58,578 bases of DNA, taken from positions 1 to 58,578 of the IMG/VR virus record IMGVR_UViG_3300026521_000072. One strand, 5' to 3'. Under the pieces are notes generated by a model. That model searched no databases. It saw nothing but the letters and a program-made list of their open reading frames with translations, and had not been told where the DNA came from. Shown one piece after another: positions 1,429 to 54,616 of the stretch (position 1 is its first letter; the number at the start of each line of letters is the position of its first letter). This DNA comes from a virus. Taxonomy: Duplodnaviria; Caudoviricetes. The translations under genes and the position numbers were made by a program.

Positions 1429-2297
1429 ATACTAAAACAGTAGCAGGTATTGAATATTCACTACCACAAGTATATTTATTACAGGAAACAGGTATCGGTA
1501 CAGCAGAATATGCAGCTCGTACAGCATATGATAGCTTCGATAAAAGTGAAAATACTATAGTAAAAACTATAAATGAAGAAGTTAATGCAGAAGCAAGTCC
1601 AGTAATGATAAAAGAGGCTTATTCGGATATGCTAAACAATATTGAACACTCAGATTTACTTGACTCTTTAGCTTGGGTACATCATCATCATAGTGTTCTT
1701 GAACATGCTAACCTTACATACCTTATCAAAGGTACAAATCGTGGTACACTTCAAGAACATGCTCGTCACCGTATTCAAGCTATCACAGTACAATCAACTC
1801 GTTATACTATGTCGCCTATTATTAATGCTTTTGTAGCTACTATGCATAAAGGTGGGTTACCTGAATTTACAAATATACTTGATAAATTAGATTTTTTAAC
1901 TATTACAGATTTTGCAGCTAACTTAGAGATAAAGCATATTTGGGAAAAACTAGATTTACAACTAATGGAGTTAGGTGAAGAAGAGTTCTTAAAATTGGCA
2001 TTATCTAAATCAAACTTAAAAATATATAATGACTGTTTAAATACACATACAACAGAAGAAATGTATGATTTACTACAAAGAGGTAAATCTAAACGTAATG
2101 TTGGAGACAATTTTAAATGGATTGTTACAGATAATTGGAAAGTAGATATGGTTGTCACTTTCAATTTAAGAAGTTTGAAAAACTACTTTACTCTGCGTGA
2201 GAGCGGTGCGGCATATTTTCAGATACGATGGCTTGCTCAGGAGATGATGAAGGTTACTCCAAAAAAATATCTTGATTTAATTGTAAAGAATAAGTAA
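1425..2297 (+). CDS. thyX: FAD-dependent thymidylate synthase ThyX
   Basis: HHSVLEH, RHR-x7-S signature (RHRIQAITVQSTRY), NLRSLKNYFTLR. Confidence 0.93.
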   Translation: MNTKTVAGIEYSLPQVYLLQETGIGTAEYAARTAYDSFDKSENTIVKTINEEVNAEASPVMIKEAYSDMLNNIEHSDLLDSLAWVHHHHSVLEHANLTYLIKGTNRGTLQEHARHRIQAITVQSTRYTMSPIINAFVATMHKGGLPEFTNILDKLDFLTITDFAANLEIKHIWEKLDLQLMELGEEEFLKLALSKSNLKIYNDCLNTHTTEEMYDLLQRGKSKRNVGDNFKWIVTDNWKVDMVVTFNLRSLKNYFTLRESGAAYFQIRWLAQEMMKVTPKKYLDLIVKNK

Positions 2298-2530
2298 TGT
2301 TTAAATTTAAATACGCATGTGAATACTGCGAATATGAAATTCTAGCTCTTCTAACAGAAGTATCCGAAGTTTGTCCAGTTTATAATGATACTGGAAATAC
2401 AAGGCCAAATATTGAAATATATAAATGTACTGATTGTATACATTACATAAATAATGATGAATGTAATCTTGCGTTAGGGTACAGCATTAATGACATAAAA
2501 TGCCCAAAAACATGTAATAGTAATATGTAG
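2297..2530 (+). CDS. small Cys-rich (zinc-binding) protein
   Basis: CEYC, CTDC and further Cys in 77 aa; TAATG coupling to thyX. Confidence 0.6.
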   Translation: MFKFKYACEYCEYEILALLTEVSEVCPVYNDTGNTRPNIEIYKCTDCIHYINNDECNLALGYSINDIKCPKTCNSNM

Positions 2531-2594
2531 AATAGCTATAAATTTTTTGTAAAAAGTATACAAATAAGACAGACATAAAAAAAAAAGGAAAATT

Positions 2595-2793
2595 ATGAAA
2601 CTAACAACAGCTAAAACAGTGATTAAAACAAATATCAATTCACAAATTAAAGGCAAACCTACACAACCATTAGTTATTGCAGGTAGTCCAGGTCTTGGTA
2701 AAACTCGTACTATTGAAACAATTACTCGTGATTTATCGTTAGGCCTTGTTCATTATAGTGTGCCTGAGCTTACATCGGAACTTTTAAGCGGGT
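2595..2793 (+). CDS. MoxR-like AAA+ ATPase, exon 1
   Basis: Walker A GSPGLGKT; ends ...ELLSG+T at predicted 5' splice site. Confidence 0.85.
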
Positions 2794-3056
2794 TAACAAC
2801 ACTTACGTATGCCTAATATTTAATTTACTATGATGAAAATAAACAAATGATAGTAGTAAATTAATGAAGGAAAACGTATTTAAGTTACAGCCCCTTCATA
2901 CCGTGAGGTATGTCGAATAATCTCTCTAATTGCTGGAAACTCCTTAGAGCCTTAACACCACAATATATCAGAAATGAGTATATGAAGGTTTGAAAAGTTA
3001 AGGATTGGACAATCAGCAGCGAAAGAAGGTATTTAATAGTCGATTAATACTGATTA

Positions 3057-3065
3057 TGGTATACT
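3057..3065 (+). promoter_or_regulatory. extended -10 promoter for intron HNH-AP2 ORF
   Basis: TGGTATACT followed by RBS AAGGAG at 3076-3081. Confidence 0.5.
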
Positions 3066-3086
3066 CTTATATATAAAGGAGACCAT

Positions 3087-3644
3087 ATGAAAGTATACAA
3101 TTACACATACATTGAAGACAAAGAGTATTTTAAAATATTAGTAACTAGGTTAGATGATACTTCCTACTTAAAAGAAATTCTAGTAGATAATTCTATTAAA
3201 GAATTAGTTAAAGAAAGAAATATCAGGATAGTAAAGTCAGGGTACGCTGTATTAAGAGGTAAAGGATGTTTCTTTTTACATCACTTAGTACTAGGGCATA
3301 CAAGTAATATGTCCACAGTAGTGGATCATATAAACGGTAATAGACTTGACAATCGAAAATCTAATTTGCGAGTACTACCACAAGCAGATAATGCTAACAA
3401 CAGAACTAAAAATTCTCGATGTAATACAGGAGTTGTAGGGATAGCTAAAAGAAGTAAAGGTAATTATAATTACTTCAGAGCTACCGTCAGTGATAGGGTT
3501 ACTATTGTAGAAAATAGTAAAGCTAAGTCACAAACAAAAAGATATTCTAGACAATTCAATATTAATAAACTCGGTGAAGACGAAGCTATGAAACAAGCAA
3601 AAGCTTGGTTAAAGCAGAAACGTACTGAGTTTGGTTATGTGTAA
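3087..3644 (+). CDS. HNH homing endonuclease with AP2-like C-terminal domain (intron P6 region)
   Basis: LHHLVL...VVDHINGNRLDNRKSNLR; NTGVVGI...RQFNINKLGEDEAMKQA AP2-like tail. Confidence 0.88.
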   Translation: MKVYNYTYIEDKEYFKILVTRLDDTSYLKEILVDNSIKELVKERNIRIVKSGYAVLRGKGCFFLHHLVLGHTSNMSTVVDHINGNRLDNRKSNLRVLPQADNANNRTKNSRCNTGVVGIAKRSKGNYNYFRATVSDRVTIVENSKAKSQTKRYSRQFNINKLGEDEAMKQAKAWLKQKRTEFGYV

Positions 3645-3721
3645 AGAGATTATTAAACCGGACCCGTTCAACGACTAGTCGAAAGACGTAGAGTTCAAGT
3701 GAACTCGAAATGGGAGAAATC

Positions 3722-3750
3722 TTGATTTATTTATAAAATTCTGATATACT
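3722..3750 (+). promoter_or_regulatory. sigma70-type promoter for intron NUMOD4-HNH ORF
   Basis: TTGATT-17 nt-TATACT with TG extension. Confidence 0.55.
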
Positions 3751-3776
3751 GTTAAAAATTCACAAGGAAATTAAGT

Positions 3777-4445
3777 ATGCCAGAAAAAGAAATACATGAA
3801 CAACAACCAGAAATATGGAAAGCACTAAAATCTCCTTATAATGTGAAATATTCTGTATCTAATAAAGGTCGTCTTAGGGTAAAAACTAAAAATGGCTATA
3901 AATATAGAACAGGTTCTTTAACATCTAATTATACACACACTAAATATGTTAAGGTGACTGTTTCACATAAAGGTAAAAGTAAAACATTAATGATGCATAG
4001 GTTAGTTGCAGAGGCATTTATACCAAACCCTGATAATAAACCTATGGTTAACCATAAAGATTTAGATGGTTCTAACAACAAAGTAGAAAATTTAAAATGG
4101 GTAACAGCTTCTGAAAATATGCAACATTCGGCTGATAATAGAGATAACAAACAAAAAGAATTAGCAGAAGCTAACAGATTACGCACAGTATTTAATAATA
4201 AATTTTTAGAAAATAAAGATTTAATTGGTACAGTACTAACTGGGAGAACTCTAATAGGGATTTGTTATCTACCTAGTAAAGCTATAGAATGGCATGGCAT
4301 GTTTGCGTGTCATAAATGTTTAAAAGAGTTTAGTGCACCTTTATTACAATCATTTAGTAGACATGATAAAGGTGCTACTCAATATTGTAATAATTGTTCA
4401 AGTAAAGAAAAAGTTAAAAATATAAATAGAATTAATCAAGATTAA
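3777..4445 (+). CDS. NUMOD4-HNH homing endonuclease with C-terminal Zn finger (intron P8 region)
   Basis: EIWK...YSVSNKGRLR; HRLVAEAFIPNP...VNHKD...NNKVENLKWVTASEN; CHKC/CNNC. Confidence 0.9.
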   Translation: MPEKEIHEQQPEIWKALKSPYNVKYSVSNKGRLRVKTKNGYKYRTGSLTSNYTHTKYVKVTVSHKGKSKTLMMHRLVAEAFIPNPDNKPMVNHKDLDGSNNKVENLKWVTASENMQHSADNRDNKQKELAEANRLRTVFNNKFLENKDLIGTVLTGRTLIGICYLPSKAIEWHGMFACHKCLKEFSAPLLQSFSRHDKGATQYCNNCSSKEKVKNINRINQD

Positions 4446-4526
4446 GATATAGTCTCGTCTGCATAGAAATATGTAGCAGTCTTTAATTAGACGGCATGGA
4501 AGTAACGACTCTATGTGAAGATAACG

Positions 4527-5467
4527 TACCAAGCTTCATTGATGCACCAGATATGGCTAAGTACAGTAAAACCAACTCCACTTTAGCACAAGCTACTGAT
4601 TGGACTGTACCAATGATGTTACTTGAAGCTAATCGTTTAGCTGAACAAAACGGAGGTTGTGTGCTATTTCTCGACGACCTTCACATGATTAATATGTCTG
4701 TAGCACCATACCTATATGGCCTTCTTGAAGAACGTGCTTTAGGCTCATATAAGCTCGATTCTCGTGTAGCTATTGTATGTGCAATGAATAATTCTGATGA
4801 AGCAGGTTTTAATGGTATGCAATCTCCTATTAAGGACCGTTGTTCTATCTTACCAATCGAATTTGATTTTGATTCATGGTATGATTCTCACGGTAAGTAT
4901 CTTAACTACTTTGTATCATCATTCATCAAGCTTCATCCACAGTACATCCAAGAAGATGAATCTACTGCAATCGAACAGTTCTTAACTCCACGTTCATGTA
5001 CATATTTAGGTTATGAACTTAATGAATATGATTTTAATTTCATTCTTGAAAATGCTATGGAATTAGCTAAAATGAAAATGTCTGAAACAGCAGCAATTGC
5101 CTTTACTAAACATATAGAATATTTAAATAAAATTGATTTTAGCTCTATTGTAGCTAAACGTGAAATTATTGATATCAGTAAATTAAAACCCATTGACGAA
5201 ATTCTATATGCTTATATTATAAATTATATTGAAACAGAAGATGATGCAAAATTTTTACTTGATTTAATAGAAGCTAATATCGATCAAGCTTCATTTTTAG
5301 GGTTTTTAACAGGTGAATTGTATACTAAATTTCAATTACAACAAGCAGGTAAACCTATTACTAAAGGGGTAAAAGCAATTTTACAAACACTCCTTGAACC
5401 ACAAAACACTAAACTAAAAATGAAAAGTAGAGAAAAAATATATGAGTATATTATAGAATTTATGTAG
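4527..5467 (+). CDS. MoxR-like AAA+ ATPase, exon 2 (spliced product 379 aa)
   Basis: Walker B VLFLDD, sensor AMN, DR arginine finger, TPRS; VWA gene nearby. Confidence 0.85.
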
Positions 5468-5476
5468 AAGTGAATA

Positions 5477-6012
5477 ATGAAACCAATAGTATTTACTGAG
5501 CAAATTATTGATTGTAGTCTAATTGATAAACAACATATGTACGGTTCTCGTCGTCTTGGAGTACATACATCACAATCAGATTATGATTTGTTTTTCCATA
5601 GTAGCGAAATTGCTACTATTGGTTTAGATATTTTTCAATTAAAAAAAAAAAAGAAAAAAAGTTAATAAATAACAGTAATTATCTTTCAAGTAAACCTTTA
5701 TACGGTACAGTTAAATTAATAAAAAACATGAAAACAGTAAATAAATATAGAACAGCTGATATACTTATATTTTCTGATAAACGTGATATTGAAATAATGA
5801 ATAAAGCATTAAATTATCTTGAAAATGGCGCAACACTATTGTATGATAAAAGTTTACGTATTAATGTGTATAATTATGCATTACAACATTTTGGTTTTTT
5901 ACCGATAAATGATAAAACATACCTTATGTATACTAAAAAAGTATTTGACTTAATAGGTACTATAAAAAAATCTAATGATATACATATTAATAGTAATTTT
6001 GAAGTAATATAG
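5477..6012 (+). CDS. Pol-beta-type nucleotidyltransferase, split by a -1 frameshift in a poly-A tract
   Basis: YGSR...SDYDLF (GS/DxD); the -1 frame is open from the A12-G-A7 tract into ORF 5728..6012 (TADILIF). Confidence 0.6.
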
Positions 6013-8616: not shown

Positions 8617-10062
8617 ATGGAATCATTAACATTAGAACAACAAGCTATACCAGAGTATTTAAAGAATAACGATGGTATACTTCTTGTTGACGCTAAAGCA
8701 GGTGTAGGTAAATCGCATACAGCGTATAAAACAGTAGAATACCTTAACCCAAATAAAGTATTATACACTGCGTTTAACAAAGCTATTATTCAAGAAGGTA
8801 AAGAATTATTTCCTTCTAATGTAGAATGTCGTACACTTCATTCATTAGCATTAGCAGCTGTAAAACCTAAACTACCTATAGAAGACTTTACATATACTTG
8901 TATTAAAGAAGACATTAGCTACTTTTATAAAGGTATAATTATTAATGCTATTGATGAGTTTTATCGTTCTTCAAGTACTAACGCATTCGAGTTTGTTTCT
9001 AATTATATTAAAAATAAATTAGCTAATAATGAATTCCTTAAAGAAGAGAATGAACGTAAAAAAATAGAATTCTTATTAACTAGTATAGCTAACAACTATA
9101 TAGATAAAATGATTAATGATGAAATCAATCCAACATTTAACTATCTTCTTAAATGGATGCATGTACTATTAGTAGATGGTGAACTTAATCTTGAATACGA
9201 TCTAGTAATATTTGATGAAATTCAAGATAGTACTGGAGTAGCTTTAGAAATATTTCAACTACTATCAGCACCTAAGAAATTAGGTCTTGGTGACCAACAT
9301 CAATCAATCTACTTATTTATGAATTTAGTAAATGGGTTTGAAGTAATCAAAGATGTACCTATTTTACCAATTACTAAAACATTTCGCTGTAGCACACAAA
9401 TAGCTAAAGAAGTTCAACATTTTGGTAAACAGTACTTAGACAAGCATTTCCATTTCGAAGGTATAGATAATCCTGCACATGATGGTAAAACAGCATATAT
9501 CACAGCAACTAATGCATCTATTATTGGAATCATTAACAACCTTCATCGTGAAGGTAAGGGCTACATTCTAACTCGTCCGATTAAAGAAATTTTTGCAGCA
9601 CCTCTTGCAGTATTAACGGCTAGTAAAGGTAAAGCAGTTTACCATAAAAAGTACAAATTTTTAGAAAACGAATACAAGCAATTTCGTAAATCTCAGTATA
9701 CATCATTCTTTAAATACCTCTCTGTAGAAGTAGCAGAAGAAGAAATCAAATCTACTGTTAAATTACTTCAACAATTTAATCAAAAGCGTATCAATATATT
9801 TGATGTAATGAACGAAGCAAAAGTAGCGAAACGGGATCCACGTATTACAGTAGGTACCGGTTTCAGCCTTAAAGGACTTGGATTTGAAACAGTACATATC
9901 CATCAAGATTTAAACAACTCTCTAATTCGTATCATCGAACAAGGTGGTATTCAATCTAAAGAAGATTTAGTAGCTTTTAAATTGTACTATGTATCATGCA
10001 CAAGAGCAAGATGCAATCTATATAATGCAGAATTGTTAAAAACTATTAATATAACACTATAG
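8617..10062 (+). CDS. superfamily 1 (UvrD/Rep-like) helicase
   Basis: AKAGVGKS, FDEIQD, GDQHQSIY, TFRC, KGLGF, YVSCTRA. Confidence 0.9.
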   Translation: MESLTLEQQAIPEYLKNNDGILLVDAKAGVGKSHTAYKTVEYLNPNKVLYTAFNKAIIQEGKELFPSNVECRTLHSLALAAVKPKLPIEDFTYTCIKEDISYFYKGIIINAIDEFYRSSSTNAFEFVSNYIKNKLANNEFLKEENERKKIEFLLTSIANNYIDKMINDEINPTFNYLLKWMHVLLVDGELNLEYDLVIFDEIQDSTGVALEIFQLLSAPKKLGLGDQHQSIYLFMNLVNGFEVIKDVPILPITKTFRCSTQIAKEVQHFGKQYLDKHFHFEGIDNPAHDGKTAYITATNASIIGIINNLHREGKGYILTRPIKEIFAAPLAVLTASKGKAVYHKKYKFLENEYKQFRKSQYTSFFKYLSVEVAEEEIKSTVKLLQQFNQKRINIFDVMNEAKVAKRDPRITVGTGFSLKGLGFETVHIHQDLNNSLIRIIEQGGIQSKEDLVAFKLYYVSCTRARCNLYNAELLKTINITL

Positions 10063-17144: not shown

Positions 17145-17375
17145 ATGTATTCATATGCAACTAAAAATGGAAAAGTACTAGATTGGAAATTTAAAAAGAT
17201 AAAATATGGCTATGAAGCTTCATTAGATAATAAAGCTAAATTAGGTCAGATATTTAAATTTAAAGATTATTGGATAGCTATTTCTTATGTACAACCAAAA
17301 TACAGGGTTTCTGGATTTAAGTATAGATATTTAGCTATGGGATATTTAATAAAATTATATGATAAGGATAACTAA
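17145..17375 (+). CDS. hypothetical protein
   Basis: 76 aa ORF coupled to polymerase start. Confidence 0.55.
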   Translation: MYSYATKNGKVLDWKFKKIKYGYEASLDNKAKLGQIFKFKDYWIAISYVQPKYRVSGFKYRYLAMGYLIKLYDKDN

Positions 17376-19261
17376 TGTCATTAATGCGACCGTGGCAATA
17401 TTTACCAATTCCAATGCCAAATGAATATGACCCAGCTGAAAAAGAGCCATTATGGTTCTATAATAACATTGGTAAACATTTAGTAGAAGACTTTATTAAA
17501 ATGATGTGTAATGGACTGCTTATTGATGATGAGAAAGTAGAAACATTACGTAGTGTATTAGATAGTAACCTAAATATAGTTAAACACACATTAACTAATA
17601 ATGCTCTAATTAAGCAATTTCTTGAACAAGAATTTAAAGAAAGTAAAACCAACTTAATCAAGGAACAGCAATCTAAGTTTCGTACTATTGACTATTACTT
17701 AAAACCTTATAAACATTCTGATATGACATATCGTACGTACTTAGTTAATGAAATACTAAAAATGGAAGGGTTATCATCCGATATTCGTACTAAATGGACT
17801 ATGAATGATTTAAAAAAGTATAATAAAATCAATCATCTAGCAATATTCGATAGTATCATAGATAAATCTATTGACCCAAATCATCAAACTGTACAAACAG
17901 CTATGCAGAAATTAGCACAAGAAAAACTAGACATTTATAATAAGTCTAAAATGTTAAAAGTAGATGAAGCCAACATCGAGACTTTAGTAGGTGAGTTTAA
18001 CCCAGGTAGTAGTGTACAAAAGTATAAATTGCTGACAGATATGCTTGGATATGAATCCGGTAAAGAGAGCAAAACGTATTTAGACTATCGTAAGCAGCTA
18101 TCATATGGCAAAACACCCACAGATAAAAATGGTAAACCTAAGCGTGAACCTAATCAATGGAGTTGGGGACGTGACCAATTAGAAGATTTATTAAAAACAT
18201 TGCCAGAAGAAAATAATAAAGACCTTATAGAACTATTACAAGCATTAGTAGATTATTCATTTAGTTCTATTATACGCACTAACTTTATAGAAGCATTTGA
18301 TTCATTTACTATAGATAACTATCTACACGGTAACATAAAACTGCTAGGGGCAGTATCAGGTCGTAATACATCTAATGCACCGAACATGTTAAATATGCCT
18401 TCTACTAAGTCTAAATTTGCTAAGCCGGTTAAAGAGTGTTTTATAGCACCAGAAGGCTACTTAGTGTTTCAAGCAGACTTTTCAGCTTTAGAGGAAGTAT
18501 GTTTAGCTAATCTATCTAAAGATAAAAACAAATTAGCAATATTTCAAGATGGGTTAGATTCTCACTGTTTTAATAGTTACGGTTACTATAAAGATGAAAT
18601 CGAAGCTATATTACCACGCAATAATAATGAGTCTACTAATGACTACATTAAACGGTATAAACAAGAAGTTGATAATATACCTGAATTAAAAGCAATACGT
18701 CAACGTTCAAAACCTGTTTCATTTAAACTCAATTATCTTGGAATGCCCGACATAGATAAAGGCGGTGTTATTACGCCAGAGATGTACAACAGATTTTGGA
18801 ACGAGTTATACAAGGATGTTAAAGTATTCTTAGATGAAATGATAGTCAACCATAAACGAAATGGCTACACCCACCTCGGTCTTGGTTTTCGTATCTACAG
18901 CTCAAATATTGATAAGCATTTTCGAACCATCTGGAATGCATATGCAGGCCAGTTTTGGAGTATATTATCACTAATAACAGTAAATGAAATGCACTATAGA
19001 ATTAACGAAGAAAACTTATCTGATGATATTATTTTTAATTCAACCATATATGATGCCTGCTATGGTTACGTAAAAAAAGACGCTAAAACCGTTAAATGGT
19101 TAAATGATAACTTAATAGAAGTAATGACTAAAGACTGGTTAGAGAAACAACCTATCAAAAACCAGGCTGATATGGAACTTGGTAAATCGTGGAAAGCAGA
19201 AATAACCATACCAAACAATGCTTCGTTAAAAGATATAGAACAAATATTAAAGGATTTATAA
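17375..19261 (+). CDS. polA: DNA polymerase family A, polymerase domain
   Basis: FNPGS, SGRNTSNAPNMLN, motif A ADFSALE, motif B RQRSKPVSFKLNY, motif C TIYDA. Confidence 0.92.
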   Translation: MSLMRPWQYLPIPMPNEYDPAEKEPLWFYNNIGKHLVEDFIKMMCNGLLIDDEKVETLRSVLDSNLNIVKHTLTNNALIKQFLEQEFKESKTNLIKEQQSKFRTIDYYLKPYKHSDMTYRTYLVNEILKMEGLSSDIRTKWTMNDLKKYNKINHLAIFDSIIDKSIDPNHQTVQTAMQKLAQEKLDIYNKSKMLKVDEANIETLVGEFNPGSSVQKYKLLTDMLGYESGKESKTYLDYRKQLSYGKTPTDKNGKPKREPNQWSWGRDQLEDLLKTLPEENNKDLIELLQALVDYSFSSIIRTNFIEAFDSFTIDNYLHGNIKLLGAVSGRNTSNAPNMLNMPSTKSKFAKPVKECFIAPEGYLVFQADFSALEEVCLANLSKDKNKLAIFQDGLDSHCFNSYGYYKDEIEAILPRNNNESTNDYIKRYKQEVDNIPELKAIRQRSKPVSFKLNYLGMPDIDKGGVITPEMYNRFWNELYKDVKVFLDEMIVNHKRNGYTHLGLGFRIYSSNIDKHFRTIWNAYAGQFWSILSLITVNEMHYRINEENLSDDIIFNSTIYDACYGYVKKDAKTVKWLNDNLIEVMTKDWLEKQPIKNQADMELGKSWKAEITIPNNASLKDIEQILKDL

Positions 19262-19599
19262 TGAGTTACTATAGTAATATCTACATTAAATGTAAAAAAG
19301 AAAAAGCATTTGAATTTAAACATTTTTTAGATACTTATAAAACAACGTATAATACAGATTTATGTACTAGTGAAGAGTTTTATACTACTGACAACTACTT
19401 ATATCTAATACTATATGATTGGAAATTTTATGATAGCTATTCAAATGTTAAAGCAATTATAAATTTTGTAGATAGTACTAAAATGAAGGGGCATATAGGA
19501 ATGCTAATTATAGGAGAAGATTACCTAACAGATGAATATGGTGATTGTTATGAATTAAATCTATATCCAACAGTAATAGCAGAAGGAATGGATGAATGA
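19261..19599 (+). CDS. hypothetical protein
   Basis: AAGGA RBS before MSYYSN; WKFYDSY. Confidence 0.6.
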   Translation: MSYYSNIYIKCKKEKAFEFKHFLDTYKTTYNTDLCTSEEFYTTDNYLYLILYDWKFYDSYSNVKAIINFVDSTKMKGHIGMLIIGEDYLTDEYGDCYELNLYPTVIAEGMDE

Positions 19600-19835
19600 A
19601 AATATTTTTAGTCTCACAAAATGAAAATAATGATTATGATACATATGATTCATTTGTATGCTATGCAAAATCAAAAGAACAGGCACGTAATATGTTACCG
19701 TCTAAATTTGCAAAATGGGGAACAAGTTTTAGTACATGGGCATCATCATCGAATAAAGTTAATGTAAAATATTTAGGTAAAACTAAAAAAGACGTAAAAG
19801 CAGGAGTAATCTTAGCTTCATTTAATGCAGGATAA
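19596..19835 (+). CDS. conserved phage hypothetical protein
   Basis: YDTYDSFV...VILASFNAG motif. Confidence 0.7.
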   Translation: MKIFLVSQNENNDYDTYDSFVCYAKSKEQARNMLPSKFAKWGTSFSTWASSSNKVNVKYLGKTKKDVKAGVILASFNAG

Positions 19836-19839
19836 TAGT

Positions 19840-20031
19840 ATGACATTACAAATTAAAAACATTCAGTACTTTGAATGGAAAGTACCAGAGGAATTATATA
19901 AAGATTTAAAATCAGATGATTATAATAAACTGCAACAACTTATTGATGAGTATTTTGTATCAAATGATTTATCATCAGTAAAACAAATATCTGATGATTA
20001 CTATGAGTTAGAGCAATCTTATGAAAACTAA
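19840..20031 (+). CDS. hypothetical protein
   Basis: AGGA RBS, short acidic ORF. Confidence 0.5.
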   Translation: MTLQIKNIQYFEWKVPEELYKDLKSDDYNKLQQLIDEYFVSNDLSSVKQISDDYYELEQSYEN

Positions 20032-20221
20032 ACAAGAACGTATACAATAATGTATAAATGGTGAATCTTTTTGGGTATGTTTTGAATGTGCTAATAAATA
20101 TAGCAAAAATCAACCATATCAGTACCCGTATACTGCACATAACAATGAATGTTACATATGTAACCAACATAAGATGATAGGGCCAAGTAGAAAATTATTT
20201 GGTTACTACAAACCAATATAA
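20021..20221 (+). pseudogene. small CxxC-CxxC protein with in-frame TAA
   Basis: MKTKQERIQ*CINGESFWVCFEC...ECYIC...; single stop at 20048-20050. Confidence 0.5.
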
Positions 20222-20231
20222 AGGATATTGA

Positions 20232-20477
20232 ATGACATATCAAAAAACATGTGATATACGAATTGATTGTTACTCTAAAGATGCTTTCTTTAATAACAAA
20301 AAGAAAACGTATGACACTTCAATTAATTTAAATTTAAACAAATTTATAGGTACTAAAAACTCTTTTTCAAATCAAAAAATAGAATTGATGGTAGATGATA
20401 AAAAATACTATGTACCTTTATACGATTTACAACAAGCACTTAAAATGCTTAAAAATATACATAACGCAGGAGATTAA
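20232..20477 (+). CDS. hypothetical protein
   Basis: AAGGA RBS, 81 aa. Confidence 0.6.
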   Translation: MTYQKTCDIRIDCYSKDAFFNNKKKTYDTSINLNLNKFIGTKNSFSNQKIELMVDDKKYYVPLYDLQQALKMLKNIHNAGD

Positions 20478-20478
20478 A

Positions 20479-20661
20479 ATGGTAATCAAATTAACACTTA
20501 AACAAAAAACAAAACTTAAGAAAGTTACATGTATGAATGTAAAATTCATTACATTTGAAAAACAGTATTTAGTAGTTACTTACGATACTATGGTAAAAAA
20601 TGAAAAATCACAACATGATTATTATCGTTTAAATACAGTATTAGCTGTTGAGGAGCATTAA
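20479..20661 (+). CDS. hypothetical protein
   Basis: AGGAG RBS before ATG 20479. Confidence 0.55.
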   Translation: MVIKLTLKQKTKLKKVTCMNVKFITFEKQYLVVTYDTMVKNEKSQHDYYRLNTVLAVEEH

Positions 20662-21480
20662 ATGAATAAACAAAAAACTAAAGAATACTTAACATATTTC
20701 GACGGTAGACATGAATTACCGGATAATGCCTTCCGTATTAGTGCATCTAGTTTTAGTAGTTTTATTAGTACACCATGGAACTACTATAGACAACAAGTAT
20801 TAGGTTTTGACCAATTCTCTGGGAACACGGCAAGTACGATTGGGACTATTATTCACGCAGTAGCTGCTCTTAAAGCAGAAGGTTTAGAACCTGATTTAGA
20901 GGAAATAGAACAATATATTACCAACCAAAAAGACAACATAGATATAGATACATATATAGTTGAACAGTCTTGGAAATCTATGGCTATGAAGCTAGTAAAC
21001 GATTATGTACTGCCTAATCAGAAATCCTATACGTCAGTAGAAGAATTTGTTACCTACGATTTAGGTGACAATATTTATGTAGGTGGTTCTATCGATGCTA
21101 TCCAAACTAATTCTATGATTGTAGACTACAAAACATACAACTCATCTACCAAACCTAAAGCTATTCCATCATATTACAAACAACAACTATTAGTATATGC
21201 TTGGGTACTTAAACAGTTAGATAGACCTATGGAACGTATTAGGTTAGTATATATCTCTAGAGAGCAAGATACTCGTCGTATAAGCGAAAAAACTGGTAAA
21301 CCGATAGGTAAGCTTACATTACCTGAGTTAACTGTCCTAACAGAAGATATACAACAATCAGATTTAGATTTTATTGAATCACAAATTATGTTATGTAAAG
21401 AAACTTTATTAGCTACTGAACAATACCCACATTTACGACATATAATTTGGCACGATATGCGCATTAAAAACGAAACTTAG
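20662..21480 (+). CDS. PD-(D/E)XK (Cas4/RecB-like) exonuclease
   Basis: ISASSF, GTIIH, GSID...IVDYKT, QLLVY. Confidence 0.85.
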   Translation: MNKQKTKEYLTYFDGRHELPDNAFRISASSFSSFISTPWNYYRQQVLGFDQFSGNTASTIGTIIHAVAALKAEGLEPDLEEIEQYITNQKDNIDIDTYIVEQSWKSMAMKLVNDYVLPNQKSYTSVEEFVTYDLGDNIYVGGSIDAIQTNSMIVDYKTYNSSTKPKAIPSYYKQQLLVYAWVLKQLDRPMERIRLVYISREQDTRRISEKTGKPIGKLTLPELTVLTEDIQQSDLDFIESQIMLCKETLLATEQYPHLRHIIWHDMRIKNET

Positions 21481-31239: not shown

Positions 31240-34200
31240 TTAGTACCCATCTATCAAGTGTGTAATCGGTACATCAGCTGCACCACTTATCAAACTTTCA
31301 GTATTATCTAACCAACTAAACGGATTTAATCTCTTACCCCATCTAAATATAATTGAACTATCTAACACATCATTAGGGATATCTAAGTATTTTTTACCTA
31401 AGCTATCCATCACTACTTTAGTAGTATTAGTTTTTAATAGTTTTAGATTAACTCTTTGTATATTAGCAAAATATTTCCAGAACGCTTCTGGCCCCATCTT
31501 ATCTAACCATTGAACTACTTTACTATTTATTACTTTACTGTAGTTTATAAAATTATCAGTAACTTCTCTTAAAGCTTTTTCCTTACTTACTCCATTTTCT
31601 ATAGCATTCCAATAAATAGCAGCTCTAAAGTGGAAATCACTTTCTTGTGTTACATGCAACAATAGCTGTCCTAATGCACTTTTCCTAGTTAAAAACGCAG
31701 TATTTACTACTTCTTTTATAGTCTTATTGTTACCAATTACGCTATCTTCTAACTTCTTTTCTACCCAATTTACAATTTTATTACTATCTTCTTCTAAATT
31801 TATATCTTCAACAATTGTCTGATACAACCCTTCTTCTAATAAAGGTATTAATGGATTATCTTTTATTTCAGCAGCTAAATCAGCTAGTTTTTTACGCACT
31901 TTATCTCGTTCAGCACCTTCAAGCATATCTACTTTACGTTCTAAGTTTCTACGTTTTTTCTCATCTTCTTTCCACTTATCTAAGTTTCGTTTACTTATCA
32001 ATAAATACTTAACTGCTTTATTTATAGGCATACCACTAAACCACAGAAATTTAGCATTACTCACTATATTACCTATTATAGTTCTAGGTAATTTTATAAC
32101 TACCATACTTTTAGCAATAGCTATAATATCTGCAAAGCCTTGTTCAATTAGTCTAACTTTATGTTGAATACTCAGAGGCAGTCTTTTTATAAGCGAAGAG
32201 TTACTAACCATTGCCTGGTTATACCCAAACAATTGTTTCATTAAATCTTTACGTATATATATTTCTCTACGCTCTTTAGGGTTTTTCACACCTTTAGCTA
32301 GATCTTCTTTTTTATTCATCTCAACTATATATGCTCTAGTTTTAGGAGGTAGCAAACCCCATAACTCCTCTCCTTCTGTTTTAGGCATAAATCGTGCAAC
32401 ATCAGCTTCTCCTACTTTACCTTTTAACTCTGCAGTCGTAAGCCTATTTTCAGTAGCATACACTCTTATAAATTCATTATCTAATAACTCTTTAGCTAAA
32501 TTTTCATCTTTGATACTTTTTAAAGTTTCTTTAGTATCTCGTATTATAATATCAATTAACTCCTCATTATTCGTGTCAGTATACACTTGTGTATCTTTTT
32601 GCCCAAAGCTTCTAGCTAATAAGTCTGTACCTCTTTTTTCTAAATCTATATGGGTCTCCATCTCAGATAGAGTAGGCTCATACCTAAAGTCAATTACCCT
32701 CCCATACTCATTATATATAGGGTACATATTATTATAGTTACTATGCTTAGCTGCATGTCTAATTGCTTCACGAATTTTATTGTTTATGCGTTCATTAGAT
32801 AAATGCTCGTTCTCTACTCTTACTTTTTCACTTAATGTCAAACCCTTAATAGTTAATCTTTGCAAACCTATTGCACCATCAACTCTTTTAGTTAACCCCA
32901 CATTGTCATTTACGTACAAACCATACAGCATTTTACCAGTATCTCCACTATCCTTTCTCATAGTACGAATTAGTCTATAACCTAGATTTTCCATTTTATT
33001 ACTAGTAGCTTTATCAAATGGAGCAAATATTAACTCTTTACTATAGTCGGTATTCTCCTTCATTTGTCCTTTAACCATTTCCTGTAACTTACCATTAAGC
33101 TCCCAATCACTTTTAGTAGCTACTTGTACACCTTTACTGTTTACTAAATAGTTTGTAACACCTTCTACATCTAAGTCTATTAGCTCTACCATACGCTCTT
33201 TATACTCAGAGTCTATGTCCTTTAAAGCGTATAATGTAATCAGTCTATCAATCATATTTTCAATCTTAACTACGTTATACTCTGCAACTAACTCTCCTCC
33301 GTCTGGAAACGCTAGGACACTACCAAAGTTTCTAGCGATATTATGAGCATTGCTGCGTAATCCTTTTTTAGTAAGCATGTACTTAGCTACACTTTTAGCA
33401 TTACGTACCATAGCATTACCCAGTACGTAGTTGCCATGTTTAATAGATTTTATACTTTTTTCTAATTTATTTATTTCTTTATCTAGTATATTACTATCTG
33501 TTAAGTATTTTCTTAACACTTTAGCATCGGTACTAACGGCTTGAAAGTCTGTACGCATAATAACTCTGTTTAAAGCGTGGTTGTATTTTAAGTTTTTATT
33601 AGCGTACATGTCTATGTTCTTAAACCCTGTTTGAATATCTCTTAAAGCTCCTTTGAAATGCATATCTCTCATACGGTCTAAATGACTTTTGAATTTCATA
33701 GTTATATCTGTTATCTGTACTAAAGTTTTTCTACCTGCCGTAAAATCCGCTATTAAGTCTTTTAAGAACTCATAGTACTTACCATACATTTTTTTAAGTA
33801 GATAATCTAATTGAATTCTGATTTTTAAGTACTCATCACTGTTATAGTCACCTATAATTGTATAGAGTCTAGTTATAGCTGGAAACATTTTAGCAATATG
33901 CCATGTCTTACCTAGCACACCACTATTACGAGCAAGTTCTGCTTCTTTATTTATGTACGTTAACAGTTTATGGACTCTAGTTAGCTCTGCTTCTTTATAC
34001 TTATGTTTATCTGTTTTATTATCTATAACACTAAAACGCTCTAGTACATTATCCACAACCTCTTTTACCGCTTTATCTACTTCTTTAGATACTTTATCTA
34101 AACCTTCATTAAACTTTTCGTCAATAACTATACCGATGTGTTCTTTAGCTTTATTGCCGTATTTGTTATTAACTTCTCCAAGTGCTATACTTAACCTTAG

Positions 34201-35418
34201 TAGCTCAGTCTCTATGTCTTTACCACGATTTCTCATGTGCGTTAAATCAAACACTAATTTATTCAATTTGTTTAATAGACCATAGAAAGTTTTACTGAGC
34301 CAAGAAGCACTGTCAGGTACTTTTATTTTTCTGTATTCTAATGGGGTGTTTTGCAGAGCTTTTTTTACATGCTTGTTAGTTAAACCATAAACTATAAATT
34401 CTTGTAAACGTCTATCAGCATCTTTATTTGTAAAATCATCTAACTTTCCGGTAAATATGTAATCATACATACTTTTTGCTTTAGCGGTTTCTTCTTTAGT
34501 GTAAGGGCCTTCTCCTTCAGGTAGCAAATCTTTGTAAGTCATTCTACTTTTAGCTACTGTATAAAGTCTTCGTAAATCATCCTTTACATCTTGCCCCAGC
34601 ACACCAAGCGATTTATGAAACAGTACATCTAAGTATGCATGTGTAATTTCATGTACTAACGCTTCCTCGTTACCCATTAGAAATCTATTATTCGCTTTTT
34701 CTGCTAGGTCACTTGGAAGTATACGTACCTTACTCCCTTTTACATTCGGATTGAAGGATGCTGCAGGCTCTGATAGTACATTAAGCATACTCTTGCTTAC
34801 ATCTATTTTTAAGGCACCAATCTCTTTAACTAGTCTATACATTCTCTTTGTAAGTTTTCGTAGATGTTCTGTATGCTCAGTATCCTGTACTACATTAGGA
34901 GCTTTCTCGTCTATACTTACCATCTCAGCATGTATTTGTTTTAAGTTACCACTCATAACGTTTTCACTGCTACCAAACATCTTGTTCATAGCATCTTCGT
35001 CCATATCAACGTTAAATAATGTATCTAAGTCGTCTTCGTGTCTAGGAGAGTTTTTAATAGCATTTTCTATTACATCAGACTGTACGTTACCTACAACTCT
35101 ACTACCAACTTCTTTAAAGTGTAAATCGATGTCACCATCAACAGTGTAAAATGTTATATTCCCTTTAGCATCAATATTGACTCTATCTATAAGTGTGGAT
35201 TGTCTATCAGAATTACCATTTTCATAGTATTCTACACTACCACTACCTAAACGCATGTCTATATTGATAGCTCTGTTGTGTAGTACAATAGCTTCTCTTC
35301 CTAGAGCATCAAGTTCTTTATCTGAGGTTTGTGGGTATTCCTTTCTAAGATTCTGCTTAACTTCTTTTAAATCTTCATTTGTAAGCATTAAACCCCTAGC
35401 ATATGCAGTACATTTCAT
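31240..35418 (-). CDS. virion RNAP subunit C (N4 vRNAP C-terminal-like, zincin motif)
   Basis: HEITH, QEFIVYGLTN, VVIK...NIVSN, QESDF...R, FINY resemble the N4 gp50 C-terminal region; single Cys at residue 3. Confidence 0.75.
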   Translation of the reverse strand: MKCTAYARGLMLTNEDLKEVKQNLRKEYPQTSDKELDALGREAIVLHNRAINIDMRLGSGSVEYYENGNSDRQSTLIDRVNIDAKGNITFYTVDGDIDLHFKEVGSRVVGNVQSDVIENAIKNSPRHEDDLDTLFNVDMDEDAMNKMFGSSENVMSGNLKQIHAEMVSIDEKAPNVVQDTEHTEHLRKLTKRMYRLVKEIGALKIDVSKSMLNVLSEPAASFNPNVKGSKVRILPSDLAEKANNRFLMGNEEALVHEITHAYLDVLFHKSLGVLGQDVKDDLRRLYTVAKSRMTYKDLLPEGEGPYTKEETAKAKSMYDYIFTGKLDDFTNKDADRRLQEFIVYGLTNKHVKKALQNTPLEYRKIKVPDSASWLSKTFYGLLNKLNKLVFDLTHMRNRGKDIETELLRLSIALGEVNNKYGNKAKEHIGIVIDEKFNEGLDKVSKEVDKAVKEVVDNVLERFSVIDNKTDKHKYKEAELTRVHKLLTYINKEAELARNSGVLGKTWHIAKMFPAITRLYTIIGDYNSDEYLKIRIQLDYLLKKMYGKYYEFLKDLIADFTAGRKTLVQITDITMKFKSHLDRMRDMHFKGALRDIQTGFKNIDMYANKNLKYNHALNRVIMRTDFQAVSTDAKVLRKYLTDSNILDKEINKLEKSIKSIKHGNYVLGNAMVRNAKSVAKYMLTKKGLRSNAHNIARNFGSVLAFPDGGELVAEYNVVKIENMIDRLITLYALKDIDSEYKERMVELIDLDVEGVTNYLVNSKGVQVATKSDWELNGKLQEMVKGQMKENTDYSKELIFAPFDKATSNKMENLGYRLIRTMRKDSGDTGKMLYGLYVNDNVGLTKRVDGAIGLQRLTIKGLTLSEKVRVENEHLSNERINNKIREAIRHAAKHSNYNNMYPIYNEYGRVIDFRYEPTLSEMETHIDLEKRGTDLLARSFGQKDTQVYTDTNNEELIDIIIRDTKETLKSIKDENLAKELLDNEFIRVYATENRLTTAELKGKVGEADVARFMPKTEGEELWGLLPPKTRAYIVEMNKKEDLAKGVKNPKERREIYIRKDLMKQLFGYNQAMVSNSSLIKRLPLSIQHKVRLIEQGFADIIAIAKSMVVIKLPRTIIGNIVSNAKFLWFSGMPINKAVKYLLISKRNLDKWKEDEKKRRNLERKVDMLEGAERDKVRKKLADLAAEIKDNPLIPLLEEGLYQTIVEDINLEEDSNKIVNWVEKKLEDSVIGNNKTIKEVVNTAFLTRKSALGQLLLHVTQESDFHFRAAIYWNAIENGVSKEKALREVTDNFINYSKVINSKVVQWLDKMGPEAFWKYFANIQRVNLKLLKTNTTKVVMDSLGKKYLDIPNDVLDSSIIFRWGKRLNPFSWLDNTESLISGAADVPITHLIDGY

Positions 35419-35420
35419 TG

Positions 35421-38400
35421 TTATCCTTTACACTTTGTGTTGCTGTTATCTATAACAGTCTTTGTTGCTATTATACCTGTTTCTAGCATAGAATCATCTG
35501 AATTGCTAGAACTATTCTCTACTCGTCTAATCATTATAATCTGGTCTCCAGTATTGCTTATCACTTCAAACCCATATTTACTGTACCAACTTATTAGTTT
35601 CTCTTCATTGGTAGTATCGTCCATAGGAAGCACCTCTAACAGTATATCTTCATTACCGTACTCATTAATTACACGTCCCATGACAGCATCAGCATAACCT
35701 AATCCTCTCTCATTTGAATGTATCATGTTAAGTGTGCGGTATACCTTAGTCTTATCTACATCGTCACCTAAGTAATCATTCCAGTTCAGCATACCGTTTA
35801 TCTTAGCCTTACCTAAGCTAGCATAAGCAACAACTTTATCGTTTTTATACAACTCCACACGTTTTACATTTCTATTTTTATTATTTGGGTCAACAACTAA
35901 CTCTCGTTCTTTTATTTGAGTTTCTAGTGCATCTTCTACTATACTATCTACAGCCTTCACTACGTAGCGAGTATCTACACTCCACAGTTTACCTAACACT
36001 TTCTTTATAGTATTCAGCACGTTGTTTACACTTATGGACTCATTTTGTGGGAACTGTTTAATAAACGCTCTACGTACACTAGGTTCACTACTTAGTACAG
36101 CTACTAACTCAGCTACCTGAGTAAACTCATCCTTTCTACTAAGCACATAGTCTAGTCTTTGACGAAGGATGTTACCCTCTATATCATGTCCAGGGTCAAA
36201 GTCTTTTAAACTCTCTAAACTTTTAGCTAAATACTTATATTGTTTTCTGTGTTTACCGTCTTGTAACCATTTATATGTAATTGCATGTTTAATCTCATGT
36301 GCTACATAAACAGCTCTATCTTTCGGATTAGCTTCTGCTACTATAGTTATGCTATTATTCTCTGGGTCGTACATAAACTCTTCACCAAATTTGATTTTAA
36401 TGCCATATTTCTGTATATACTGGTCATTTAGCTTATCAATCTGCTTAGCTTCTTCATTACTAATCAGCACTTCTGGTAGATAATCATCAGCAGCTTTTAA
36501 ATTTTGCGTGATTTTAAGTTTAGTATTGTCGAGTTTTCTAGTTATACTTTGTATTACATTTTCACTGGTAGTTTTTGTTTCGTATTTAGTAGGTTCGTAC
36601 TCATACTTAGCACTTACTTTATTGCCGTTCTTATCTAGCGTTTCAGCATAGGCATGTTCTACGTACAGTGTCTTGCTAAACAACTTCTCTCTATTAGTTT
36701 CAGATAGTTTTTCAATCCTACTCAGATCAGTTATATATTTCTTAATTTGGTCTGCATACTTTAACTTGCTGCCTGGTTTGCTATACTCCTCATTCAACTC
36801 TTTTAGTATATCTTCTAGCACACCATCTTCTAGCCTACTGTTAGTAAACGTCTTAACCACTGATTGCATAATTTCATGTACTAAGTGATAGTCTTTATTT
36901 AAGTTAATCCAGTGTTTGTTATAGTCTTTAGTACCTTCTATAAACTCATCTATAGAGAAATAGTTAGCATCATGCACTCCGAGTGCTACTCTACTTTTTA
37001 GTACTTCAGCTTGCACACTACCATCAAAGAAGTGTATAGGTACAACTGCACCTGAACTGTATGCCTCAACTAACTTATACAACTCTATGGCACCATGTGT
37101 AAGCCTATTACCGCTACTTTTAGTTCTTAAGCCTGGGCTAGCAATATTACCAAGCAACTCAACGTCACCCTCTTTAGTAGACACCCTCTGACGTTTAGCT
37201 ATTAGAAGTTTAGAAGTTATACCGTCATCAGTCTTAAGCACAGAGTTGAGTACTGGTAGCACATAGGACATTTCCTGTACCAAGGCTTGCATTTCTTTTT
37301 TATTTATAGGAGGTACTAGTCGTGAAGCGCGCTTATACTCAGGGCTATCTTCTTTAACAGCATCATCTACTAATTTTAGCACTTTAGTTTTATGTAGTTC
37401 TTTTATTCTCCTGTCTAGTAATTTTCTAGCAATCCTAAACTGTACTGTAAATAGCTCATTTGTAGTTCTAGTTAGTTCTATGAAGGGTTTATACTTCTTT
37501 GTTAGTACTACTTTTAAAGCGTTACCGAATGTAGGCTGTCCTTCTAATTCTTCATCTGCAGCATATACATAACCGATTAGTGTTGTACGCTCATCAGGGC
37601 TCAGTTGAAACTTACGTAAAGCTTCTAAATTTTTCGGCAAATCTCGCTTCTTGTCAGACTGTAGTACATGCAGAATTTTATTTATTCTATTATACTCATC
37701 ACCCAATTCTCGCTCTATTTCGTAGTCAGGATCTTTCGGGTTGTAGTCAGGACTAGAGTAGTAATTTTTAGCTTTTATGTAGTAGGTATTTATCATGTTA
37801 TATAAATTATCTACCGTTAAGTTAGCTGTAGATTGTATGATTGAATTAATGGCACTACCGTAGTTGAGTACCATAAACGGGTTTTTCATAAAATTACGAC
37901 TAAATCCTCTATCTTCATCATACTTAGGGTCTATAAGTTTTAACACCTCTAAAGGTACATCATAGCTATTTTTACGCAATTCTTTTGTTAGTTCTTTGGC
38001 AGGGTCCTCATAAGAATCTAACGCATCTGTATCATCATTTCTAGCACCATAACTTTTAGAAGCCTCTGTAAACACTCCCATTTTCTCTAGTTCTTTTATT
38101 TGAGCATCTATATTGGAGCCGAATAGGATTGGGATTTGCATGTTTTTAATTGCATACCCAGACGTAATAGCGTCTGTCTCTATACTAGATTCAGTGTAGT
38201 AACTCTCTGCAGTACCTCTACCAGTATAATTCCAGTTTAATAGCTCACTGATACCACTCAATAGATGTTCTGGCTCTCCTAAATTGTATTTACCTTCTTT
38301 AGCTACTTCTAGTAGTATTTTTGCATGCTCTGCATAAGTTTCACTATTTTGGTACTCTTCTAATGTAGCGTATTGTGTAGCTTCGTCTATATCATAACTA

Positions 38401-54211: not shown

Positions 54212-54616
54212 TTACACTCCTTGTACTGTTTGAGCAGCTAACCCGTCTCTAGGGGCAATGCTGCCATTATTGATTTTTTCTAATGTTTCTAATTTTCTCA
54301 TATTGTCAATATCCTTAGCATCTACACTATCTACACCATACAGTTCTTTCGCCTTCTGAACCTCTTCATTTGTAATATTTACACCAGGAGGTACAGTTAC
54401 ACCATCACCATAAGCATAACTTTTTTTAAGCGCAGCAGCTAACCCATCATCCACACCTAATGTATGTACATGTTCCAGCTCATTAGCACGTTCAGCTTGC
54501 TTTTGAGCTTCTAGCGTTCTTGCACCTACTTCTGCTAACTTTTGCAACTCTGCTTCTTTAGCCGCAAGGATAGCTCTTGCCTGTTCTGTTCTATCAGCTC
54601 TATCCAGTATTGTCAT
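54212..54616 (-). CDS. hypothetical virion-region protein
   Basis: 134 aa, overlaps portal stop. Confidence 0.6.
   Translation of the reverse strand: MTILDRADRTEQARAILAAKEAELQKLAEVGARTLEAQKQAERANELEHVHTLGVDDGLAAALKKSYAYGDGVTVPPGVNITNEEVQKAKELYGVDSVDAKDIDNMRKLETLEKINNGSIAPRDGLAAQTVQGV

Follow-up and report, generated by a model that had tools for sequence, protein, structure and literature searches.

The group I intron that interrupts td, the gene for thymidylate synthase, of phage T4 belongs to subgroup IA2, which is defined by a pair of additional hairpins (P7.1 and P7.2) lying between P7 and the 3′ strand of P3, and the open reading frame (ORF) of its GIY-YIG endonuclease, I-TevI, is looped out from P6 with a promoter-like box of its own. 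In the DNA analyzed here, a whole 58.6-kb IMG/VR virus record (58,578 nucleotides (nt), about half complete by estimate; hereafter the window), a AAA+ ATPase gene is interrupted by what is very probably one mobile IA-type group I intron with two HNH endonuclease genes, ORF2 in P8 being the resident and ORF1 in P6 a later invader. Like td, this is a phage group I intron with P7.1 and P7.2, with an endonuclease ORF and a promoter-like box in P6, in a conserved motif of a nucleotide-handling enzyme; unlike td, it has a AAA+ ATPase gene as its host, HNH enzymes, a second ORF in P8 and a 96-nt P1 extension. Judged by P7.1 and P7.2, the predicted fold is IA2-like. The DNA polymerase intron of the Bacillus phage SPO1 is likewise a phage IA-type intron with an HNH homing endonuclease, I-HmuI, but it has a single ORF, and I-HmuI resembles ORF1 only weakly and in the HNH motif alone, the DNA-binding domains being different. 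The terL intron of Escherichia phage rV5 (DQ832317), whose coding sequence is annotated as a three-piece join, scores 84.9 bits with the Rfam model RF00028 and has one HNH homing endonuclease gene, ORF65. It is 88.5% identical to 3665-3716 of the window (52 nt covering J6/7, P7, P7.1, P7.2 and the 3′ strand of P3), and only this core stretch is alike, whereas the host gene, phage group, peripheral helices, ORF position and ORF number all differ.

Group I introns with two endonuclease ORFs are described from fungal mitochondria, namely the biorfic introns nad1-i4 and cox1-i7 of Podospora and cox2-i1 of Hypomyces aurantius, and the extra ORF is interpreted there as a mobile element in its own right, which moved into an intron that already had one ORF (PMC4964425). 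Those introns are organellar and encode LAGLIDADG or GIY-YIG enzymes, whereas the window intron belongs to a phage and has two HNH enzymes in P6 and P8. Among 45 Bastillevirinae introns surveyed in 2025, three had several ORF matches, one of them being two successive introns and two a frameshifted single gene, and none of the three was a single ribozyme with two intact, different endonucleases (PMC11878797). A phrase search of a 2014 review of bacterial group I introns returned no instance of “two ORFs”, “two homing”, “two open reading” or “more than one”; our literature search found no relevant report of a phage group I intron in a MoxR gene, and, as far as the searched literature goes, no phage group I intron with two endonucleases has been reported. 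An earlier note on this DNA had called both the host gene and the double cargo unusual, which holds as far as the literature search reaches. The intron is ordinary in kind; it is unusual in its host gene, in having two HNH genes in P6 and P8, and in a 1-nt offset of its insertion site. The two-ORF stage had until now been documented for fungal mitochondria, and the AAA+ ATPase of N4-like vent phages is added to the host genes of phage introns. The features of the locus are listed below.

2595-2793, plus strand: exon 1 of the AAA+ ATPase gene; 66 codons and the first base of Leu67, with the Walker A motif GSPGLGKT and Pfam P-loop matches
2794-4526, plus strand: predicted group I intron, IA-type, 1733 nt; starts with TAAC and ends with G4526; limits from alignment with seven orthologous introns, with partial RF00028 matches
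2790-2797, plus strand: P1 5′ strand; exon GGGT (2790-2793) and intron TAAC, with the 5′ splice site after T2793
2798-2883, plus strand: P1 extension hairpin; stem with many compensatory changes, apical element kept in 8 of 8 introns
2884-2893, plus strand: P1 3′ strand and internal guide, GTTA-CA-GCCC, with GCCC at 2890-2893
2897-2912, plus strand: P2 hairpin, CATACC-GTGA-GGTATG; 6 pairs, 5 changed on both sides, paired in 8 of 8
2921-2926, plus strand: P3 5′ strand, TCTCTC; pairs with 3712-3717 (6 pairs, paired in 8 of 8 sequences, 3 compensatory)
2930-3019, plus strand: P4-P5 domain; P4 TTGCTGG (2930-2936) with TCAGCAG (3013-3019), enclosing P5 and its extensions
3021-3668, plus strand: P6, 648 nt; closing stem of 3021-3057 with 3631-3668 (RNAduplex, -16.5 kcal/mol)
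3087-3644, plus strand: ORF1, HNH endonuclease gene with an AP2-like C-terminal domain, 185 residues (aa); AGGAG 7 nt before the ATG and TGGTATACT at 3057-3065
3667-3677, plus strand: J6/7 and P7 5′ strand, TTCAACGACTA; GACTA at 3673-3677, kept in all 8 introns
3678-3687 and 3691-3706, plus strand: P7.1 (GTC-GAAA-GAC) and P7.2 (GAGTTC-AAGT-GAACTC); perfect hairpins that differ in sequence among the relatives and stay paired
3712-3717, plus strand: P3 3′ strand, GGGAGA
3718-3727, plus strand: P8 5′ strand, AATCTTGATT; perfect 10-bp complement of 4434-4443, and P8 covaries among the relatives
3777-4445, plus strand: ORF2, NUMOD4-HNH endonuclease gene, 222 aa, with a weak zinc ribbon at the C-terminus; the P8 3′ strand (4434-4443) is made up of its final codons
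4450-4454, plus strand: P7 3′ strand, TAGTC; inside an RF00028 match, invariant in 8 of 8
4459-4476, 4479-4492 and 4494-4516, plus strand: P9, P9.1 and P9.2; 18 pairs, 14 compensatory
4527-5467, plus strand: exon 2 of the AAA+ ATPase gene; the two remaining bases of Leu67 followed by 312 codons and a stop codon, with an AAA_5 match

Joining T2793 to T4527, as the earlier note had proposed, gives an ATPase of 66 + 1 + 312 = 379 aa, a length shared exactly by 13 of the 76 homologs retrieved with exon 2 as the query. The closest homolog (P0002; intronless, 379 aa, 81% identity) reads SELLSGLPSF over the junction, and the window reads SELLSG / L / PSF. The predicted ligated junction is AGCGGGT joined to TACCAAGC, and by these alignments the intron interrupts a conserved motif of the ATPase, LSG[L/I]P. 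Without splicing, the same DNA contains a 73-aa ORF with the Walker A motif (2595-2816) and a 323-aa ORF that corresponds to the C-terminal half of an AAA_5-type domain (4496-5467). We fetched 47 related loci (L001-L047, three pairs of which are the same contig twice) and placed the exons in them by tblastn. The exons were contiguous in 23 of the 47 loci and 3-9 nt apart, owing to indels in distant homologs, in 7; exon 1 was not located in 8, mostly at contig ends, and the remaining 9, representing 7 distinct contigs, had an insert at the matching position of the ATPase gene. The intronless homologs align without a gap between SG and LP, so that the refuting condition set by the earlier note, a break in their alignment at SGLP, did not arise, and exon 1 is 89% identical to that of the intronless allele L009. 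The gene had been described as MoxR-type. Exon 2 scored 20.3 bits with AAA_5, below the cut-off of 22, and the intronless homologs carry precomputed PF07728 and PF00004. The MoxR label is tentative, as it comes down to this sub-threshold match and to GenBank names of phage proteins with 23-30% identity to exon 2 (tblastn of the exons against phages, where exon 1 gave two weak matches).

The seven distinct inserts (L003, L005, L006, L007, L020, L033 and L044) are orthologous introns, with the same ATPase motif, ribozyme and guide sequence as the window intron. Each has zero or one ORF, against two in the window intron, and none has an ORF in P6. Their sizes are 496 nt (L003), 580 nt (L044), 1082-1090 nt (L005, L006, L007 and L020) and 1404 nt (L033), and six of the seven pass the gathering score of RF00028, which is 50 bits (91.2 in L003, 57.6 in L007, 55.9 in L033, 50.3 in L020, and 50.2 each in L005 and L006); L044 fails. 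The L003 and L044 introns have no ORF. Together with the intronless loci and the window, these introns make up a natural allele series that runs from intronless genes through introns with no ORF, with one ORF and with a different ORF to the intron with two, which allows a direct test of the stepwise build-up of an intron by endonuclease-gene invasion. Two members of the series deserve separate mention. At 3780-3850, the 496-nt intron of L003 retains the TATACT box, ribosome-binding site and ATG that belong to the P8 endonuclease gene, after which comes a deletion; by this sequence it derives from a form that had the endonuclease gene and is not primitively ORF-less. In L033 (4059-4925), the P8 cargo encodes a protein of 288 aa that matches DUF723 and a treble-clef zinc finger, has no HNH domain and is unrelated to ORF2; judged from the sequences, this intron family has exchanged its endonuclease gene here. 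In addition, the 102-kb relative L003 has a second group I intron (RF00028, 63.6 bits) at 9641-9937, about 5 kb downstream of the ATPase gene and in another gene.

Two stretches of the window intron align with these relatives, one between the 5′ splice site and the end of P4, the other between J6/7 and the 3′ end. Located by alignment to the Rfam-validated relatives, the core helices from P2 to P9.2, including P7.1 and P7.2, occur in canonical order with the P3/P7 pseudoknot, and the position of P7.1 and P7.2 is kept in all eight introns. The motifs that the earlier note had given for P3, P7 and the two hairpins following the R element were present where it had placed them. When the ORF loops were excised and the three aligned segments concatenated, RNAalifold predicted 98 pairs for the eight introns, of which 58 were compensatory; 88 of the 98 form in the window and 90-97 in each of the other introns. 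In the 5′ part, aligned on contiguous references (P1, P2, P4 and P5), 39 of 61 pairs were changed on both sides. P3 covaries as well, reading TCTCTC/GGGAGA in the window and L020 and TCCCTT/GGGGGA elsewhere, and the helices of P5 do so too, P4 being invariant in all eight. The TAAC/GTTA pairing of P1 covaries in L033 and L044. Both the U-G pair at the 5′ splice site and the terminal G of the intron are aligned in 8 of 8 sequences. The P1 that had been proposed, a 7-bp helix, was correct in its GGGT/GCCC pairing with the U-G wobble, whereas the 7-bp form contains one C-C mismatch. Inspection by eye for a P10 pairing of the 3′ exon with the guide region gave no convincing helix. At the tip of the P1 extension, a 24-nt element (2831-2854; TGATGA..AATA.ACAAA.GATAGT) is nearly invariant in all eight introns, while the stem below it covaries freely; the element causes weak Rfam matches to C/D-box snoRNA look-alikes at 2824-2860, and it could make a tertiary contact, form a kink-turn-like motif or bind a protein.

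A sensitive sub-threshold scan of 2700-4650 found two partial matches to RF00028, one at 4442-4474 (model positions 219-251, the P7 3′ strand and P9; 23.8 bits, E=0.0022) and the other at 2931-3060 (model positions 60-138; 14.4 bits, E=1.4). In the relatives P6 is a hairpin of 23-33 nt, and in the window ORFs of 558 and 669 nt split the core, which is why no match reaches the gathering score there. Standard RNA-family scans and gene callers miss such introns and report a truncated 323-aa ATPase, and several relatives in public protein sets are affected likewise. Many public predicted proteins of the ATPase family (P0011, P0014, P0019, P0056, P0057, P0060, P0065 and others) are 304-324 aa long, with the first Met beyond the intron site as their start; the contigs of at least the P0056, P0057 and P0065 types (L003, L007 and L005) carry the intron, indicating that gene callers systematically truncate this gene.

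The architecture is reproduced in an independent DNA sequencing run from another study (X4), the contigs of which span 2582-2951 (from exon 1 into P3), 2994-3691 (P6 in full, including ORF1) and 3688-4884 (from ORF2 into exon 2), each of them gap-free; it is therefore not an assembly artefact. X4 differs from the window at 36 listed positions and 12 further ones, and among the 36 listed differences none breaks ORF1 or ORF2. Two of the changes (4495 and 4498) fall in P9.2, where they convert C-G to U-G and G-U to A-U, so that pairing is kept. Joints of 3023 to 3665 and 3030 to 3657 in X4 were considered as a possible ORF1-less form of the intron; their shorter sides are only 22-27 letters long, and we read them as the conserved cores of other introns. 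The runs X1 and X2 yielded short pieces only.

The comparison with the seven orthologous introns places ORF2 between the P3 and P7 3′ strands, in the loop of P8, and shows it to be a second HNH ORF different from ORF1, as the earlier note had stated. Its product scored 34.4 bits with HNH_3 (cut-off 24.8) and 22.7 bits with NUMOD4 (PF07463; E=1.2e-4), just below the cut-off of 23.4, and the ortholog in L005 scored 23.6 bits with the latter. Orthologs with 47-49% identity lie in P8 of L005, L006, L007 and L020, and a partial one in L021. A promoter-like sequence (TTGATT-17-TATACT with TG, 3722-3750) stands before ORF2; TGnTATACT and a Shine-Dalgarno sequence stand upstream of each ORF, and the TATACT box is kept before the P8 ORF in the relatives. 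The proposal that each ORF has its own promoter was not confirmed: a sigma-70 scan gave 17 sites against 18.7 +/- 3.6 expected, which is not above chance, and flagged the site before ORF2 and not that before ORF1. The window has 10 copies of the word GRTATACT where 7.9 would be expected, and without enrichment it is not an evident phage-wide promoter word.

ORF1 had been described as an HNH-AP2 gene between Q and R. Its position and the HNH assignment are upheld by 30.9 bits with HNH_3 (PF13392; cut-off 24.8), by matches to PHROG HNH families (E=1e-16; 5e-35 for ORF2), and by D80, H81, N89 and N93, which are invariant in the ORF1 family; the catalytic region also matches the I-HmuI chain 1u3e (E=0.013). 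The AP2 part is supported through relatives rather than by the protein itself, which alone scored 13.9 bits with AP2 (PF00847; E=0.07, cut-off 33.3), whereas 5 of 19 aligned family members matched at E<=0.01, the best at 1.3e-5. The AlphaFold model of ORF1 (mean pLDDT 83.5) has three strands followed by a helix at residues 119-181, a predicted fold that fits AP2. A Foldseek search of the whole model against the PDB returned nothing at E<=0.001; the elongated shape of this multi-domain chain is the probable reason. The family is large (363 matches, HNH proteins of about 185 aa, with close relatives at 60-78% identity), and ORF1 itself was seen only in the window and in the near-identical X4 strain. 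None of L001-L047 has an ORF1 homolog, and a search for related loci with the ORF1 sequence alone returned no relative; with an alignment of the ORF1 family the best matches were 49% and 37% identical. The two nearest family members that could be placed both adjoin group I introns (L048 and L049). In L049, a 130-kb viral contig, three RF00028 matches (83.2, 54.9 and 32.5 bits) lie at 1590-3157 around or beside the ORF1-like HNH gene and could represent a tandem or nested array of introns.

From the locus anatomy, homology, covariation, open reading frames and contiguous intronless alleles documented above, we infer splicing, endonuclease activity, targets and an order of invasion, as follows. 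In the pre-mRNA, the exon sequence GGGU would pair with the guide GCCC to form P1, and the P3-P9 core would fold around the two looped-out ORFs, closed by the long P6 stem and the 10-bp P8. Free guanosine would attack after U2793, and the exons would be joined after G4526 to restore the 379-aa ATPase. The ORF2 enzyme would cut or nick intronless ATPase alleles of co-infecting relatives, and repair would copy the intron in. Since ORF2 has orthologs in P8 of four relatives and ORF1 a homolog in none of L001-L047, ORF2 appears to be the resident and ORF1, an unrelated HNH gene, would have invaded P6 of the ORF2-bearing intron later, in a way that parallels the fungal biorfic introns. ORF1 would then most likely be a selfish unit of its own, with intron copies that lack ORF1, or else the same gene region, as its targets.

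Several observations weigh against this reconstruction. No RF00028 match reached the gathering score in the whole window or in a search of the window's own record, and the best match is 23.8 bits against the required 50. P4 and P7 never vary among the eight introns, and hence give no covariation evidence; P1 is short, with 4 bp plus a distal 4 bp; and 10 of the 98 predicted pairs do not form in the window, 7 of them belonging to P7.1 and P7.2, the window hairpins of which are of other lengths and out of register in the alignment. Among the listed differences from X4, ORF1 and ORF2 each have 4 non-synonymous and 2-3 synonymous changes, suggesting weak constraint. The late arrival of ORF1 rests on 8 sampled alleles. 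As for splicing, a 1724-nt contig of the metatranscriptome X3 runs unspliced over the 3′ splice site, and no joint of 2793 to 4527 is among those listed for the contigs of the four runs X1-X4, although contigs cannot show absence. The X3 library may contain DNA, and its unspliced contig decides nothing either way.

The two endonucleases might instead be working partners, that is, two nickases that act on opposite strands of the homing site and jointly make a double-strand break. I-HmuI, which ORF1 resembles, is a nicking enzyme, and HNH homing enzymes of this type are often nickases; I-BasI, another nicking endonuclease, is reportedly the subject of a paper of its own. Both ORFs are open in two strains, and each has the same TGnTATACT box and a ribosome-binding site upstream. 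However, five related introns run on an ORF2-type enzyme alone, so a partner is not required, and the DNA-binding modules differ, AP2-like in one and NUMOD4 with a zinc ribbon in the other, which suggests different targets. We regard such a partnership as unlikely.

The insertion might also be dead, the ribozyme being a relic that no longer splices and the ATPase being inactivated or fractured into two polypeptides. The missing spliced reads and contigs and the unspliced contig from the RNA library would fit this, as would the 323-aa ORF that gene callers report from the ATG at 4496. Nevertheless, the core is intact and pairs like that of the Rfam-passing relatives, and the U-G pair at the splice site and the terminal G are retained. 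Among the listed differences between the window and X4, exon 2 has 12 synonymous and 2 non-synonymous changes, indicating strong purifying selection between the two strains. Moreover, the ATG at 4496 is part of P9.2, and translation from it would yield a product with no Walker A motif. Taken together, a dead insertion is very improbable. A twintron or tandem arrangement, with ORF1 as part of a second group I intron nested in P6, is hardly credible, for although two introns with different endonucleases colonized the phiNIT1 DNA polymerase gene sequentially according to the Bastillevirinae survey (PMC11878797), and although the three RF00028 matches of L049 fall inside about 1.6 kb beside an ORF1-like gene, ORF1 has in P6 only 66 nt and 22 nt of non-coding flank, not enough for another ribozyme, and the two flanks pair together as a single long stem, and the sensitive Rfam scan found no further RF00028 match between 3021 and 3666.

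The window intron lies 1 nt downstream of all seven orthologous introns, an offset that the earlier note did not contain. The seven relatives are in phase 0, between the Gly codon GGT and the next codon (GGT^ATT or GGT^CTT), whereas the window intron follows the first base of a Leu codon (GGG-T^TA). The U at position -1 and the terminal G align in all eight introns, and X4 has both junctions without indels, so the offset is real if canonical splice rules hold; the phase-0 position in the window would put G, not U, before the splice site. In both the window and the relatives, the insertion comes immediately behind the GGU or GGGU paired with the guide; it is this pairing, not codon position, that the window intron follows. 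The spliced window sequence differs from plausible intronless relatives by synonymous changes only, and no donor exon sequence is evident. Two compensating homopolymer indels could possibly have produced the offset, as could illegitimate double-strand-break repair, a route for which Parker et al. 1999 is listed among the references of PMC3984707. A further route is ribozyme-guided integration, in which the intron would have reverse-spliced into the ATPase mRNA and then been copied into DNA, in place of endonuclease homing; we hold this to be a conceivable, if rather doubtful, origin of the offset. Reverse splicing is a proposed route of intron movement in ribosomal DNA (PMC1299323). If it also operated here, the offset would be a natural trace of such mobility in a phage protein-coding gene, and it offers a concrete case for asking whether guide pairing, besides endonuclease specificity, can choose the insertion site in a protein gene.

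The phage itself is uncultured, from hydrothermal vents, and N4-like by its ATPase relatives. Sequencing runs that contain window sequence come only from hydrothermal-vent and biofilm metagenomes, and a megablast search of 2400-5600 against phages returned a single 52-nt match in the core, indicating that there is no close cultured relative. The window also has genes for an SU10-type portal, ribonucleotide reductase, a family A DNA polymerase and ThyX. A split DNA polymerase gene was suspected at 17375-21480; the polymerase ORF proved to be whole, and the gene next to it encodes a PD-(D/E)XK nuclease. On the minus strand, three consecutive giant ORFs of 1392, 1497 and 1202 aa (31240-43522), with no Pfam match at E<=1e-5, lie close to the SU10-type portal gene (54613-56577); by analogy with the N4-like relatives of the ATPase, they might encode parts of a virion RNA polymerase or else large tail proteins.

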